The notes below the pieces were generated by a model that was given only the letters and a program-made list of their open reading frames with translations, was not told the origin of the DNA and ran no database searches. DNA of 64,000 nucleotides from a plasmid: the sequence record NZ_CP019209.1. One strand, given 5' to 3'. The position numbers and the translations under genes were made by a program. This document shows, piece by piece, positions 30,446-39,087 of this stretch. Every line of letters starts with the position of its first letter. The first letter of the stretch is position 1.

Positions 30446-31255
30446 GGTTCTGTTGCAAAGTTTTAAATAAAGAATAAAATCCCTTACGGTATCTATGATT
30501 TAAGCTGGGATTCCCAATAATACCTTGATTTCAGTACAGACCGAAAACCCGAAGAGAGTGCCTTCTTTTCGGGTTTTCTTATATAATCCTCGAATGGCTT
30601 CCATGCCTTTAATCGTGGTAGAGCCAGTGCGTAAACTTCGATAGAATTTATTGCGTCTCTTTACTGGACGATGGTCTTGTTCAATCAAATTATTCAGGTA
30701 TTTAATGGTACGATGTTCTGTCCCTTGATAAAAGCCGCCGTATTCTTTTAGTTTCTTAAAGGCACTTGTAATAGAGGGGGCTTTATCTGTGACTACAACC
30801 TTCGGTTCATCAAACTGCTTCACTAACCGCTTAAGAAAAGCATAGGCTGCTTGTGTGTCCCGTTTTTTACGTAACCAAATATCCAAGGTTAAACCATCTG
30901 CATCGATGGCTCGATACAAATAATGCCATTTTCCTTTAATTTTGATGTACGTTTCATCCATTTTCCATGAATAAAAGGATTTTTTATTTTTCTTTTTCCA
31001 AATTTGATAGAGTAGTTTGCCATATTCTTGCACCCAACGATAAATCGTCGTATGAGAAACGTTAATGCCACGATCATATAAGATTTCTTGAACTTCACGA
31101 TAGCTAAGGTTATAACGAAGATAGTAGCCCACGGCTACAATAATCACATCCTGCTGAAATTGCTTTCCTTTAAAATGATTCATCGTCATTCCTCCTGCTA
31201 TCTTTTTCTATTATTCTACCTTATTTGATAGTAGATTTAAAACTTTGCAACAGAA
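30446..31255 (-). mobile_element. IS1216-type IS6-family insertion sequence (810 bp, intact)
   Basis: IRs GGTTCTGTTGCAAAGTTT at 30446 and RC at 31237-31255; transposase 30500..31189. Confidence 0.9.
30500..31189 (-). CDS. IS1216-type IS6 transposase
   Basis: MNHFKGKQFQQDVIIVAVGYYLRYNLSYREVQEILYDRGINVSHTTIYRW... Confidence 0.9.
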   Translation of the reverse strand: MTMNHFKGKQFQQDVIIVAVGYYLRYNLSYREVQEILYDRGINVSHTTIYRWVQEYGKLLYQIWKKKNKKSFYSWKMDETYIKIKGKWHYLYRAIDADGLTLDIWLRKKRDTQAAYAFLKRLVKQFDEPKVVVTDKAPSITSAFKKLKEYGGFYQGTEHRTIKYLNNLIEQDHRPVKRRNKFYRSLRTGSTTIKGMEAIRGLYKKTRKEGTLFGFSVCTEIKVLLGIPA

Positions 31256-31734: not shown

Positions 31735-32790
<1,056 letters not shown>

Positions 32791-32830: not shown

Positions 32831-32861
32831 ACTAATATTTTTAGTAAAAAATCTCGACAAA

Positions 32862-32918
32862 ACATTAAGTAAACAGTTATGGTGTTGTTAACAAAAAGAA
32901 AACGCATTCAAAACAGGA
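32862..32918 (+). promoter_or_regulatory. Conserved promoter/operator block shared with 37421..37480, including a cre-like element AGAAAACGCATTCA (32897..32910)
   Basis: ~50 of 57 nt identical between the two solute-binding-protein upstream regions; one mismatch to cre consensus WTGNAANCGNWNNCW. Confidence 0.5.
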
Positions 32919-32927
32919 GGAATTAAG

Positions 32928-34193
32928 ATGAAACATTTCAAAAAAATAGCTTTAACAGGGATAGCTGTTTTAACTGGGACATTACTCGCAGCATGTGGTG
33001 GGGGAGATAGTAATTCTAAAGACGGGCAAGTAACTTTAAGCTATGCGAGTTGAGATACTGACCAAGCTCCAGGACTAAGAAAAATATTAGATGAATTTGA
33101 AAAACAAAATCCTGATATCAAAGTAGAAATGGAGACAACGCCTTGGGATCAATATTGGGTTAAATTAGAAGCTGCAACAACGGGAGGTAATATGCCAGAT
33201 GTAGTAACCATGCACTCTAGCGAATCCTATAAATATATGTCACAGAATGCTTTGATGGGACTTGATGATGTTATCAAAGAAAATGATATTGACATGGGAA
33301 ACTTTACTGAAGGAATTGCTGATTTCTATACGCTTGAAGACGAACTATACGCAATCCCTAAAGATGCTTCTGTAGTGGGGCTATGGTACAACAAAGAATT
33401 ATTTGATAATGCAGGTGTCGATTATCCAGATGAAACATGGACATGGGAAACACTCAGACAAGCTGCAATTGATTTAACAGATGAATCAAAAGGCATCTAT
33501 GGTTTTGCATCACATATTGGAACAGAGACTGGCTACTGGCCATTTATTTATCAAAATGGGGGAGAAGTATTTGCCGATGACAATACAAAATCAGGTTTGA
33601 ATACCCCAGAAGCACAAGAAGCTTTAGCTTTTTATCGAGATATTGCACTTGTTGATCATGCTTCACCAACAATTACAGAATTACAAGATCCTGATAAGTT
33701 AAGTCGTTTTCAATCAGGTAGATTAGCAATGATGATTGAAGGAAACTGGTTTGCACCGGGATTTTTGAAAAATGACTATCTAGTTGAAAATGTTGCTTCT
33801 GCCGTGTTACCTAAGGGAAAAGTTAATGCAACAATTACAAATGGACTTGGTTGGGCTGCCAGTGCGAATACAAAATACCCAGAAGAAGTGAAAAAACTAA
33901 TGGCATTTTTAGCTAGTGAGGACGCCAATAAAATCCAAGCGGAAACGGGGGCATCAATCCCAGCACTAAAAGGCTTTGAAGACGAGTGGGCTGCTTCTTC
34001 AGATACAATTGATTTGAGTGCTTTTGGAAAAATGTTGGAGTATGGAGTCCCTCGTCCATACAATAAAGATGGATTACGAGCTGAACAAGCAGAAGTTCAA
34101 ATTATTAACCGTATTCTGTCTGGTGAAGTAACTGTTGAAGATGGAACCGCTCAAATTGAAAAAGAAGTCAATGCGATATTGAGCGGAAATTAA
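32928..34193 (+). pseudogene. Sugar ABC transporter solute-binding lipoprotein with in-frame TGA (33051-33053) where Trp is expected (YAS*DTDQAPG)
   Basis: Signal peptide + lipobox LLAACGG; remainder 33129..34193 is a family-1 solute-binding protein. Confidence 0.75.
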
Positions 34194-34266
34194 ATTAGTT
34201 AATTATACAATATACAGGCGAAAGGATTCTATTTCGTCTGTATATTAATGGATGAATACCAAAAAG

Positions 34267-35172
34267 GGGGATATTATGAAAAATCGAATTTTTGGAAAAT
34301 ATCGTAAAGATCAAGTGATATGGGGCTATATTTTTATTTTTCCAACGGCATTAGGATTAATTTTATTAAATATATGGCCAGCAATTCAAACAGCAATTTT
34401 AAGTTTTCAAAAAACGGTAGGGTTCGGTGATACTGAATGGGTCGGATTAAGAAATTACCAAAAAATGTTTGCAGACGGTGAAGTTTTTCAGTCTTTATTA
34501 AACACATTAATTTATGCAGTGGTTTCGATACCTAGTATTGTTGTATTATCCTTGTTGGTGGCAGTTTTAATGAATAGAAAAGTTAAAGGATTGTCGATTT
34601 ATCGGACAATTTATTTTCTACCAGTCGTTGCTGCACCATCCGCAGTCGCAATGATTTGGCGCTGGATGTTCAATAATGATTATGGACTGATTAATAACAT
34701 GTTGGCTAAAATAGGTCTCGATGGACCAGCATGGTTAACGGATCCATCGATTGCGATTTATTCTATTATCATTGTAGGAGTTTGGAGTGCTATTGGTTAT
34801 AACATGGTGTTATTACTAGCCGGCTTATAAGAAATTCCTAAAGATTATTATGAAGCATCGGAAATTGATGGTGCTAGTCCAATCCAGCAGTTTTTCAACA
34901 TTACGTTACCATTAGTTACACCAACATTATTTTTTGTAGTTGTAACAACAGTTATCAATGCTTTCCAAGTATTTGATGTTATTTTTATGATGATTACTCC
35001 TAATAGTACCGCCATGTTTAAATCACAATCATTAGCCTATTTATTCTATAAACATTCATTTATTTTAAATGACAAGGGATATGGTTCGGCAATCGTTATG
35101 TTCCTTTTAGTGATTATATTAATTATTACTGCAATTCAAATGAAGTTGCAGAAAAAGTGGGTAAACTATTAA
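34267..35172 (+). pseudogene. Sugar ABC transporter permease (MalF-like) with TAA nonsense at 34828-34830 (CAA expected: LAGL*EIPKDYYEASEIDGAS)
   Basis: Same frame remains open from 34831 to 35172 and encodes the EAA-loop and C-terminal TMs. Confidence 0.75.
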
Positions 35173-36012: not shown

Positions 36013-36043
36013 AACTATTAATTAGTGATTGGAGAGTAAGTAC

Positions 36044-37354
36044 ATGACAAAAATTACATTTATTGGTGCAGGAAGTACTATTTTTGCAAAAAACGTATTA
36101 GGCGATGCGATGTTAACTCCAAGTCTACAAGATGCACATATTGCATTGTACGATATTGATGAAAAACGACTAAAAGAATCAAATTTAATGCTTAAAAATA
36201 TTAATAAAAATTCGAATGAAAATCGTGCTGATATTGTTTCTTATTATGATCGCAAAGAAGCGTTAAGAGAGGCTGATTTTGTTATCAATGCTATTCAAGT
36301 GGGTGGTTATAAACCTTCAACAGTGATTGATTTTGATATTCCTAAAAAATATGGGTTGCGACAAACTATTGGTGACACCATGGGGATTGGTGGGATTTTT
36401 AGAACCCTACGGACACTACCAGTAATGTTAGACTTTGCTAAAGAAATGGAAGAAGTTTGTCCAAATGCTTGGTTATTGAACTATACAAATCCGATGGCGA
36501 TGTTAACCATGGGTGTTTTAAAAGCGACGAGTATTAAGACTGTTGGTTTATGTCATAGCGTTCAAGTATGCGTACCAGAATTGTTTGAGCATTTAGGAAT
36601 AGCCGATCAATATGACTTAAATGACTTTCAATGGAAAATTGCAGGCATTAATCATATGGCATTCTTGTTGGAAATTACAAAAAATGGGGAAGATTTCTAT
36701 CCAACAATTCGTCAGTTAGCTGCAGAAAAACCAAATCCACATCCAGATTCTGTACGTTTTGAATTGTTGAAACGTTTTGGTTACTATATTACAGAATCAA
36801 GTGAACACAATGCAGAATACCATCCATACTTTATTAAATCAAAATACCCAGAATTGATTGACGAATTAGGGATTCCGTTGGATGAATACTTACGTCGTTG
36901 TGAACAACAAATTAATGATTGGGAAAGCATGCGAGAGGACATTGTAAATAATGGGGAGTTAACACATACGAGAAGCCGTGCATATGCTTCATATATCATG
37001 GATTCTATTACGACAGGAACTCCGTCAGTGATTGCAGGAAATGTCTTAAATAAAGGCTTAATCACAAACTTACCGACAGATGTTTGTGTGGAAGTACCTT
37101 GTTTAGTCGATAAAAATGGCGTGCAACCAACCTATGTCGGTGAATTGCCAACACAATTAGCTGCTTTAAATCGGACGAATATCAATGTTCAAGAACTGAC
37201 AGTAGAAGCCGCTTTAACACTAGATAAATCAAAAATTTATCAAGCAGCGTATTTAGATCCACATCTATCATCTGAATTGTCTTTAACAGATATCAAAAAT
37301 TTAGTGGATGATTTAATCGAAGCACATGGGGACTATTTACCTGAATATAATTAA
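36044..37354 (+). CDS. Glycoside hydrolase family 4 (NAD/Mn-dependent alpha-galactosidase MelA-type or 6-phospho-alpha-glucosidase)
   Basis: N-terminal KITFIGAGSTIF Rossmann motif, GH4 Cys region GLCHSVQ. Confidence 0.8.
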   Translation: MTKITFIGAGSTIFAKNVLGDAMLTPSLQDAHIALYDIDEKRLKESNLMLKNINKNSNENRADIVSYYDRKEALREADFVINAIQVGGYKPSTVIDFDIPKKYGLRQTIGDTMGIGGIFRTLRTLPVMLDFAKEMEEVCPNAWLLNYTNPMAMLTMGVLKATSIKTVGLCHSVQVCVPELFEHLGIADQYDLNDFQWKIAGINHMAFLLEITKNGEDFYPTIRQLAAEKPNPHPDSVRFELLKRFGYYITESSEHNAEYHPYFIKSKYPELIDELGIPLDEYLRRCEQQINDWESMREDIVNNGELTHTRSRAYASYIMDSITTGTPSVIAGNVLNKGLITNLPTDVCVEVPCLVDKNGVQPTYVGELPTQLAALNRTNINVQELTVEAALTLDKSKIYQAAYLDPHLSSELSLTDIKNLVDDLIEAHGDYLPEYN

Positions 37355-37462
37355 AAAGAAGCTGAAAGAGTAAGGAATTTTCAATTCCTTACTCTTTTCT
37401 TAGTTAAATTTAGTAAAAATATTGACAAAACACTTAGTAAACAGTTACATTAGTGTTAACAA

Positions 37463-37951
37463 AAAGAAAACGCATTCAAATTGTATAAGGAGGAGCATAA
37501 AATGAAGTGGTCTAAAAAAATTATTTTAGCTTGTATAGCACTAGGAGCAACGATCTCTTTGACTGCTTGTGGAAAAAATCAGGAAGATGCAAGCGGTAAG
37601 GTAGAAATAGAGTTTTTTAATCAAAAAAGAAAACGCATTCAAATTGTATAAGGAGGAGCATAAAATGAAGTGGTCTAAAAAAATTATTTTAGCTTGTATA
37701 GCACTAGGAGCAACGATCTCTTTGACTGCTTGTGGAAAAAATCAGGAAGATGCAAGCGGTAAGGTAGAAATAGAGTTTTTTAATCAAAAAAGAAAACGCA
37801 TTCAAATTGTATAAGGAGGAGCATAAAATGAAGTGGTCTAAAAAAATCATTTTAGCTTGTATAGCACTAGGAGCAACGATCTCTTTGACTGCTTGTGGAA
37901 AAAATCAGGAAGATGCAAGCGGTAAGGTAGAAATAGAGTTTTTTAATCAAA
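37463..37951 (+). repeat. Three tandem copies of a 163-bp unit (cre-like element + RBS + first 41 codons of the solute-binding-protein gene)
   Basis: ATG/RBS recur at 37502, 37665, 37828 with period exactly 163; first two copies create identical 49-codon lipoprotein-signal mini-ORFs. Confidence 0.9.
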
Positions 37952-39087
37952 AAAAAGAAATGACTCAAACGATTCAGGAGATTGCTAAAGATTTTGAAGC
38001 AAAAAACCCTGATATTCATGTAAAAGTTGTGGATGTACCGAATGCTGGTGAAGTAATTAAAACACGTATGCTTGCAGGCGATGTACCAGATGTCATTAAT
38101 CTTTATCCTCAAAGTATAGAATTGAAAGAATGGGCGAAAGCTGGTTATTTAGAGGACTTAACCGAAGAACCGTATTTAGAGAATATCAAAAATGGATATG
38201 CACAACGTTTTGCTATTGAGGATCGTGTATATAGCATACCATTAACCGCTAATGTCTATGGTTTTTACTATAACAAAACTGCTTTTGAGGAAATGGGGAT
38301 TCAAGCACCAGAAACTTGGGCAGAATTTGAAAAAATAGTAGCTGAGATTAAAGATCAAAACAAAGTACCGTTTGCGATTGCAGGAGCAGAAGGCTGGACT
38401 TTAAATGGTTATCACCAACTAGCTATAGCGACTGCTGCTGGTGGTGAAGAGGAAGCGAACAATGTTTGGCGTTTCTCAGAAGTTAATGGAATTAATGCTG
38501 AAAGCAAAGAAATGCAAAAAGATTTTAATCGATTAGATTTGTTAAGAGAACCAAAAGCTTTGCAAAACAACTGGCAAGGTGCCGGTTATAACGATACAGT
38601 AGTTACTTTTACAAAAGGTGATGCGTTGATTATGCCGAATGGTTCATGGGCAATGCCGATGATTCATTCACAAAATCCAGATTTTGAAGTAGGAACTTTT
38701 CCTTTTCCAGCAGATGAAGCAGGTCAAAGTCTAACGATTGGCGCAGGAGACCTAGCCTTATCAGTTTCTGCAACTTCTCAACATAAAGAAGAAGCCAAAC
38801 GTTTTGTAGAATATATGACAACACCTGAAGCGATGCAGAAATATTATGATGTAGATGGTGCACCGTGTGCTGTTGAGGGCGTTATCGAGAATACTCAGGA
38901 TTCACCATTAAGTGGTTTAACTGAACTTGCTTTTACTGATCGTCATTTAGTTTGGTTAGCCAAAGATTGGAATAGTGAAAATGATTTTTATACCTTAACA
39001 ACAAATTATTTACACAATGGCAATCAAAAAGCCATGATTAACGCATTAAATGCTTTCTTTAATCCAATGAAAGCTGACGGAAGGTAG
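37828..39087 (+). CDS. Sugar ABC transporter solute-binding lipoprotein (raffinose/melibiose-type); true start at the third repeat copy
   Basis: MKWSKKIILACIALGATISLTACG lipoprotein signal; family-1 solute-binding protein. Confidence 0.85.
   Translation: MKWSKKIILACIALGATISLTACGKNQEDASGKVEIEFFNQKKEMTQTIQEIAKDFEAKNPDIHVKVVDVPNAGEVIKTRMLAGDVPDVINLYPQSIELKEWAKAGYLEDLTEEPYLENIKNGYAQRFAIEDRVYSIPLTANVYGFYYNKTAFEEMGIQAPETWAEFEKIVAEIKDQNKVPFAIAGAEGWTLNGYHQLAIATAAGGEEEANNVWRFSEVNGINAESKEMQKDFNRLDLLREPKALQNNWQGAGYNDTVVTFTKGDALIMPNGSWAMPMIHSQNPDFEVGTFPFPADEAGQSLTIGAGDLALSVSATSQHKEEAKRFVEYMTTPEAMQKYYDVDGAPCAVEGVIENTQDSPLSGLTELAFTDRHLVWLAKDWNSENDFYTLTTNYLHNGNQKAMINALNAFFNPMKADGR

Follow-up and report, generated by a model that had tools for sequence, protein, structure and literature searches.

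A polymorphic tandem repeat of the start of a solute-binding-protein gene on Enterococcus faecium megaplasmids

The array at the start of the binding-protein gene

In the window (the whole 64,000-nucleotide stretch of plasmid DNA that was analysed, from record NZ_CP019209.1) the 5′ end of a sugar-transporter gene is repeated head to tail, and the array is a genuine strain-to-strain copy-number polymorphism, with 1, 2 or 3 copies on related plasmids. Our default reading, which we consider probable, is that this is a repeat born by slippage and resized by unequal exchange, a near-neutral or mildly regulatory polymorphism and not a dedicated mechanism.

Tandem Repeats Finder places the array at 37461..37954, with a period of 163, 3.0 copies, 99% matches, no indels and a score of 981, and found no second tandem array across the 64-kb window. 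The borders of the units were set by base-by-base comparison of the copies and put them at 37461-37623, 37624-37786 and 37787-37949, all on the plus strand. As had been predicted from the sequence, each unit has an operator-like site, an RBS, an ATG and a signal peptide: an A5 tract is followed by the 14-mer AGAAAACGCATTCA (37465-37478, 37628-37641 and 37791-37804), an AAGGAGG RBS (37487, 37650 and 37813), a gap of 8 nt, the ATG (37502, 37665 and 37828), the signal peptide and the first mature residues. Unit 2 shows no differences from unit 1, and unit 3 is where the functional gene begins. The sole difference between the copies is at position 37848, which is C in unit 3 and T at the equivalent positions 37522 and 37685, a synonymous change of an isoleucine codon from ATT to ATC; past 37949 the period-163 identity goes on for 5 nt into an A-run, to 37954. 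The original prediction of an exact threefold amplification of a 163-bp unit stands as regards the tandem triple, both by Tandem Repeats Finder and by direct comparison, and gives way on exactness because of this one mismatch. Head-to-tail copies of one unit at this level of identity are what defines a tandem duplication, and chance cannot account for a 163-bp triple with a single mismatch.

The prefix common to the units and the real gene is about 42 codons long. Rather than the 41 codons of signal peptide first supposed, the 42 shared residues comprise a signal peptide of 22, Cys23 of the lipobox (L-T-A-C23 in the gene of the window) and 19 residues of the mature N-terminus. The gene itself (37828..39087, plus strand) encodes an intact extracellular solute-binding lipoprotein of 419 residues, matching SBP_bac_1 / SBP_bac_8, which in one source bears the name 'raffinose/stachyose/melibiose transport system substrate-binding protein'. 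Downstream of it lie two ABC permeases, a GH36 alpha-galactosidase, a GH13 gene and the sucrose phosphorylase gene gtfA, by which gene content the locus is a msm/raf-type (msmEFG-like) raffinose-family oligosaccharide cluster with the binding protein as its first gene.

Upstream, a palindromic hairpin with a 15-pair stem and a T-run (37365..37397) is the terminator-like end of a GH4 alpha-galactosidase gene (36029-37354) and separates it from the binding-protein operon. The best sigma-70-like promoter, TTGACA-18-TACATT (10/12; 37422..37451, plus strand), is present as a single copy 5′ of the array, outside the repeat unit, and the first copy of the 14-mer is directly 3′ of its predicted −10. 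Inside the unit the best promoter-like match is TTCAAA-17-TAAAAT (9/12). Matches of this grade were found 7 times where 6.9 are expected by chance, and with the single good match lying 5′ of the unit, amplification of the promoter was ruled out. A terminator-like site was sought within the repeat unit and none was found. The array begins at about the predicted transcription start, therefore one transcript from this promoter would carry three operator-RBS-ATG modules.

Copy number among related plasmids

The locus was surveyed with a 2.3-kb query around the array, which matched 123 plasmids in PLSDB. All except one (122/123) are from Enterococcus and most are of replicon type rep_cluster_893; the window belongs to a megaplasmid of Enterococcus faecium. 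Among the 123, ten gave a hit at a strict E-value to an 80-nt query that bridges the junction of two units, the remaining 113 (92%) being single copy. Five have two junctions and therefore three copies (LR134106 of E6043, LR135220 of E7040, CP083474, CP093948 and CP093954), and five have one junction and two copies (CP138458, CP032307, CP011829, CP047327 and CP072885). Copy number thus differs among related plasmids, as in a variable tandem repeat. All ten of the plasmids with a junction, together with single-copy references, were dissected at the sequence level.

Six more complete plasmid records contain the same three-copy array: CP111711, two from LR-series E-isolates and three from Qingdao. 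At least two sequencing groups produced them. The SNP that sets copy 3 of the window apart from the other two copies is present in four of the six. The records of the LR-series E-isolates seem to correspond to the 62 ONT+Illumina hybrid assemblies of PMC7018651, a link that we infer, as the main text of that paper gives no isolate names. Contigs encoding the 49-residue ORF formed at the junction include the complete three-copy plasmid CP111711 and several drafts. Two-copy forms also occur in several drafts and in one metagenome contig, though two-copy calls in short-read drafts may represent collapsed three-copy arrays. No match to the junction pattern was found in the GTDB species-representative genomes, and the metagenome search gave no contig beyond the one two-copy match. 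Hosts of the duplicated alleles are from hospital or clinical, animal, food and river sources on several continents. The literature was searched for a description of this repeat and none was found. A contig of 2.9 Mb, the longest with the 49-residue mini-ORF, encodes it under the successive accessions AQT58531.1 and AQT58532.1; for at least one genome this may mean a three-copy locus on the chromosome, or one assembled together with it.

Flanking haplotypes and alleles

Flank haplotypes were derived from a gapped alignment of 2.25 kb of flanks. The one-copy plasmid of E7067 shows 0 differences from the three-copy plasmids over these 2.25 kb, and over 18 kb it differs from that of E6043, besides the repeat number, by 3 mismatches and two short gaps. 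One flank haplotype is thus common to all of the three-copy plasmids, the window and single-copy E7067, and the earlier suspicion of an unstable recent duplication finds support in this one-copy plasmid with identical flanks. Similarly, one-copy JHP38 has the SNP haplotype of two-copy UW8175 in its flanks, the two being apart only by two 1-nt indels. Two further flank haplotypes carry two-copy alleles, which brings the haplotypes with duplicated alleles to at least four. By this distribution, copies were gained or lost on at least two occasions and probably on many, either as independent gains or as one old gain followed by recombination and losses.

The pattern of the SNP across the copies of three-copy arrays is either T,T,T or T,T,C. 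Arrays of two copies have the LTAC allele of the lipobox in copy 1 and the LAAC allele in copy 2, and LAAC is also known as a single copy. Such patterns are consistent with recurrent unequal exchange or gene conversion, both among the copies and between alleles. The A-tracts of the alleles that were dissected are A5-A7 upstream, A6 or A7 at the junctions and A8 at the gene end. An A6 junction corresponds to a period of 163 and A7 to one of 164, and as both are found within one flank haplotype the tracts would appear to keep slipping after duplication.

Two of the plasmids have peculiarities of their own. Copy 1 of CP138458 has a C-to-T change inside the 14-mer (GCATTT), and homopolymers in the record differ by one base at several places, with a frameshift of the real gene among the effects; these differences are probably long-read errors and make the tract lengths of the record unreliable. 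AP026642 pAA610_1 (about 1430-1700 of the extracted region) is without the −35 region and the GH4 terminator, the GH4 coding sequence running into GTTACATTAGTG, and codons 4-5 of its signal peptide carry a small GGTCGGGTCTAT-like insertion; the leader has here been rearranged in another way.

Origin of the repeats

The duplicated segment is bounded in the window by A-rich microhomology, with CA5GAAA (the A5 being 37461-37465) at one end and CA8GAAA at the other, the A8 tract lying in codons 41-44 of the real gene (37949..37956, plus strand). Single-copy plasmids have ...TTAAC-A5-7-GAAAAC... upstream and ...AATC-A8-GAAATG... in codons 41-44, that is CA5-7GAAA(A)C and CA8GAAAT with the common core AAAAAGAAA. 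A-rich direct repeats at the borders are, as sequence features go, the signature of slipped mispairing or unequal exchange.

Tandem duplications in bacteria arise by RecA-independent slipped misalignment and by RecA-dependent unequal exchange. Here the first duplication would have come from two A-rich direct repeats some 165 bp from each other, the CA5-7GAAA directly 3′ of the promoter and the CA8GAAA in codons 41-44, by slipped-strand mispairing or by unequal exchange between them. Once two 163-bp copies were present, unequal exchange between sisters or between plasmids would grow or shrink the array to 1, 2 or 3 copies and would also shuffle SNPs between copies, with the A-tracts slipping between A6 and A7. 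The junction tracts of A6 or A7 are shorter than the A8 predicted from a clean exchange at the 9-nt repeat AAAAAGAAA, so the exchange would have occurred inside the A-run, or the tract would have contracted later.

The array has in common with known slippage duplications the head-to-tail near-identical copies, the short A-rich direct repeats at the borders, a copy number that varies between otherwise identical replicons and SNPs shuffled among the copies. It differs in its junction tracts, A6/A7 and not A8, and in that its origin is here read from alleles. With the three defining features of the class present, it is, judged by its sequence, a microhomology-born tandem duplication, or VNTR. The VNTR units used in MLVA typing of E. 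faecium are about 120-280 bp. They are similar to this one in size and likewise polymorphic in copy number among strains, whereas the present array is plasmid-borne and covers an operator close to the promoter, an RBS and the 5′ end of a coding sequence, because of which every extra copy makes a translatable mini-ORF.

Reading frame of the junctions and the mini-ORFs

The junction A6 tracts lie at 37623..37628 between units 1 and 2 and at 37786-37791 between units 2 and 3 (plus strand). The length of this tract sets the frame: A6 gives a 49-residue ORF and A7, as in other plasmids, one of 55 residues, while A8 or A5 would join the copies in frame and is predicted to give the binding protein an extension of 54 or 55 residues with a second signal peptide in it. 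About 25 junctions were inspected and all are A6 or A7 and out of frame, so the upstream copies end as mini-ORFs of 49 or 55 residues on the next RBS or ATG. Six predicted in-frame fusions (A8 or A5, with combinations of LTAC and LAAC, in 2 or 3 copies) were sought in a collection of 15 billion proteins and none was found, by an exact-match search of low power. The lack of in-frame junctions would be compatible with selection against in-frame fusions.

That two 49-codon mini-ORFs precede the real gene was correctly foreseen: the first is at 37502-37651 (RefSeq WP_010728938.1) and the second, identical to it, at 37665-37814, both on the plus strand, with the gene starting from 37828. The full peptide is MKWSKKIILACIALGATISLTACGKNQEDASGKVEIEFFNQKRKRIQIV, of the form MKWSKK...EFFNQKRKRIQIV*, and consists of a complete lipoprotein signal peptide (MKWSKKIILACIALGATISLTA, followed by the cysteine) and 26 residues. 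Inspection of the translation, using the lipobox pattern [LVI][ASTVI][GAS]C together with a positively charged n-region and a hydrophobic h-region, identified MKWSKK as the n-region, IILACIALGATIS as the h-region and L-T-A-C23 as the lipobox. The TAA of the first mini-ORF (37649-37651) provides with its last two bases the first two of the next AAGGAGG and is 13 nt ahead of the next ATG; the stop of the second overlaps the RBS of the real gene. Where the junction is A6 the tail reads ...NQKRKRIQIV before TAA, and where it is A7 it reads ...NQKKKTHSNCIRRSIK before a TGA that overlaps the next start as ATGA. In the period-164 alleles of the two-copy plasmids (1419-1586 of the extracted regions), the 55-residue ORF ending in ATGA has the classic geometry of translational coupling.

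Both forms are represented in RefSeq as hypothetical proteins, WP_010728938.1 (49 residues) and WP_002338082.1 (55 residues), and exact matches in a large protein collection are on 48 contigs for the former and 184 for the latter. These entries are by-products of the duplication of the binding-protein gene start and not independent genes.

The arrangement resembles that of the leader peptides of ermC, secM-secA and mifM-yidC2, in that a short, well-initiated ORF ends at the RBS downstream, and as with SecM and MifM the upstream ORF encodes an export signal. It differs from them in being a recent copy of the gene's own start, with a tail that depends on the frame of the junction, and we know of no arrest motif in the mini-ORFs. 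Nor is there the conservation of a leader peptide, the mini-ORF being absent from 113 of the 123 plasmids and the junction from the GTDB representatives. No sign of an RNA switch was found in the form of a terminator-like site in the unit, of alternative pairing or of a change in RBS accessibility among the one-, two- and three-copy leaders: in all three, each module has its RBS-ATG region unpaired with a predicted probability of 0.45-0.60. An effect on translation through RNA structure was ruled out on this count.

The operator-like site and its candidate regulator

The 14-mer had been described as a cre-like element. The repeated operator-like site is there, but it is not a canonical cre: the strict, degenerate consensus WTGNAANCGNWNNCW misses it by one position, AAGAAAACGCATTCA having one mismatch (T2 to A), and a canonical cre was rejected for that reason. 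An identical 14-mer is present at 32897..32910 (plus strand), 5′ of a first, broken, binding-protein gene of a paralogous cluster, where it sits between that gene and the gene of a LacI-family regulator (31747..32790, plus strand). The best NCBIfam matches of this candidate operator binder are to EbgR, RbsR and CcpA, all of them below the family cut-offs. The two 14-mers belong to a block of about 60 nt (32850-32915 and 37420-37482) that is near-identical from the −35 to the 14-mer, including the A5GAAAAC tract, and the adjoining coding sequences have diverged, which suggests shared regulation or gene conversion.

Since the identical 14-mer, in a conserved block and at the same position relative to the promoter, precedes a paralogous gene beside the regulator, it would seem more likely to be the operator of the local LacI-family protein than a canonical cre. 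CcpA, itself of the LacI family, is the less favoured candidate for binding it.

There is precedent for multiple operators in O1, O2 and O3 of lac and in the downstream cre sites of Bacillus subtilis. As in these LacI operators and CcpA-cre roadblocks, identical candidate sites lie 3′ of one promoter, here at about +7, +170 and +333 of the predicted start; the array differs from them in that the multiplicity is polymorphic and born of duplication, and in that the cre consensus is missed by one base.

Consequences for expression

In the reading that we prefer, the single promoter is not amplified and its mRNA would carry two decoy ORFs of 49 codons, each with a full signal peptide, ahead of the intact gene of the third module. 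This last has the same RBS as in single-copy plasmids, and it would stay expressible through independent initiation or through termination-reinitiation, which should be permitted because each decoy ORF terminates on the RBS that follows. Should the LacI-family repressor or CcpA bind the two additional operators of the leader, these would add roadblock repression or work as auxiliary sites, making repression tighter. The decoy ORFs, for their part, would consume initiations and yield short prolipoproteins. The net effect of the array on expression is probably small. With 92% of plasmids having one copy, and copy number varying between plasmids with identical flanks, near-neutrality is the simplest reading.

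It is unlikely that the array is an adaptive regulatory allele selected for a changed output of the operon. Tighter repression might follow from the presence of three operators within 340 nt of the transcript's 5′ end, by roadblock or cooperative binding, and the operator is indeed common to the paralogous operon beside the LacI-family regulator. More output might follow from extra ribosome loading at the 5′ end, from termination-reinitiation or from the weak promoter-like site of the upstream units, the TTCAAA-17-TAAAAT of which precedes a full operator-RBS-ATG module; such 9/12 matches are, however, at chance frequency, and RBS accessibility is unchanged. The persistence of duplications on at least four haplotypes, over several continents and in hospital, animal, food and river niches could reflect selection, as could the absence of in-frame junctions among about 25 when the A-tract slips between A6 and A7 within haplotypes. 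The predominance of one-copy plasmids speaks against this, and so do the plasmids with identical flanks, the differing copy numbers of which are as the drift of an unstable repeat would give.

A broader proposal, which we think decidedly unlikely, is that the array is a selected tunable module, in which unequal exchange between its 163/164-bp units and A-tract slippage would set the level or the on/off state of the raffinose-family transporter. Were this so, the upstream copies would be extra modules for repressor binding, ribosome loading or decoy lipoproteins, and in-frame junctions would be selected against because the binding protein would then carry a second signal peptide.

Phase variation, with A-tract slippage and resizing of the array switching the transporter on and off or between levels as in a contingency locus, is very unlikely. 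The tracts do vary in length (A5-7 upstream and A6-7 at the junctions), and alleles frameshifted at the A8 tract exist: their products of 53 residues (A9) and 44 residues (A7) are on 120 and 43 contigs, respectively, the 375-residue ORF that remains is on 161, and three-copy CP111711 has A7 in its last copy. These numerous contigs could nevertheless stem from one heavily sequenced clone, and among the 123 PLSDB plasmids the gene tract is A7 in two, one of which resembles a long-read homopolymer error, and A9 in 0. A tract of A8 is also short for classical phase variation.

Enterococcal sex pheromones derive from lipoprotein signal peptides, and the mini-ORFs might be thought to be functional, as small lipidated peptides or as pheromone-like peptides of the kind known in Enterococcus faecalis. 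They are preceded by a strong RBS, spaced as in the real gene, and their n-region, h-region and L-T-A-C lipobox are complete. Such a role is nonetheless highly improbable: the peptide is merely a truncated copy of the N-terminus of the binding protein, it is absent from 113 of the 123 plasmids, its tail is not conserved, being RKRIQIV with A6 and KKTHSNCIRRSIK with A7, and the C-terminus of the signal peptide, GATISLTA, is far less hydrophobic than the known pheromones.

Lastly, short repeats can be mis-resolved and short-read drafts show two copies where three are possible, but an artefact of assembly or sequencing at a single-copy locus, which had been raised as a possibility, is excluded for practical purposes by the many independent assemblies, namely the six other complete three-copy records, the two-copy forms in many assemblies, the junction-containing ORFs on more than 200 contigs from several sources and the metagenome contig with a junction, together with the SNP that distinguishes the copies.

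The array provides a natural allelic series in which 1, 2 or 3 identical operator-RBS-signal-peptide modules stand behind one promoter, and which could be used for the effects of extra operators and upstream decoy cistrons in enterococci. It is also a plasmid-borne repeat marker that short-read assemblies under-count, which bears on the typing of plasmids of a hospital pathogen. Carbohydrate loci of E. faecium megaplasmids have been linked to gut colonisation. The importance of the array alone is modest, as it is a structural polymorphism of a familiar kind.

The neighbourhood of the array

The paralogous cluster upstream comprises the LacI-family regulator, a binding-protein gene broken by a stop, permeases, one of them split, and the GH4 alpha-galactosidase. 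Its transporter (32928-35172) is decayed: an in-frame TGA at 33051-33053 interrupts the binding-protein gene, leaving ORFs of 41 and 354 residues, and the first permease is split into 34252-34830 and 34987-35172. The 41-residue fragment, WP_002290377.1, is annotated in both one-copy E7067 and three-copy E6043, and the decay of the paralogue is therefore independent of the copy number of the array.

Downstream, the GH13 (alpha-amylase family) ORF at 43056-44315 matches positions 142-440 alone of the Pfam profile and is probably a truncated dexB-like gene without about 140 N-terminal residues. The sugar cluster is flanked by an IS6/IS1216-type transposase (DDE_Tnp_IS240; 30500-31189, minus strand), which in related plasmids is adjoined by a short LacI-type 'substrate-binding domain' fragment, suggesting an IS-mediated assembly of the region.
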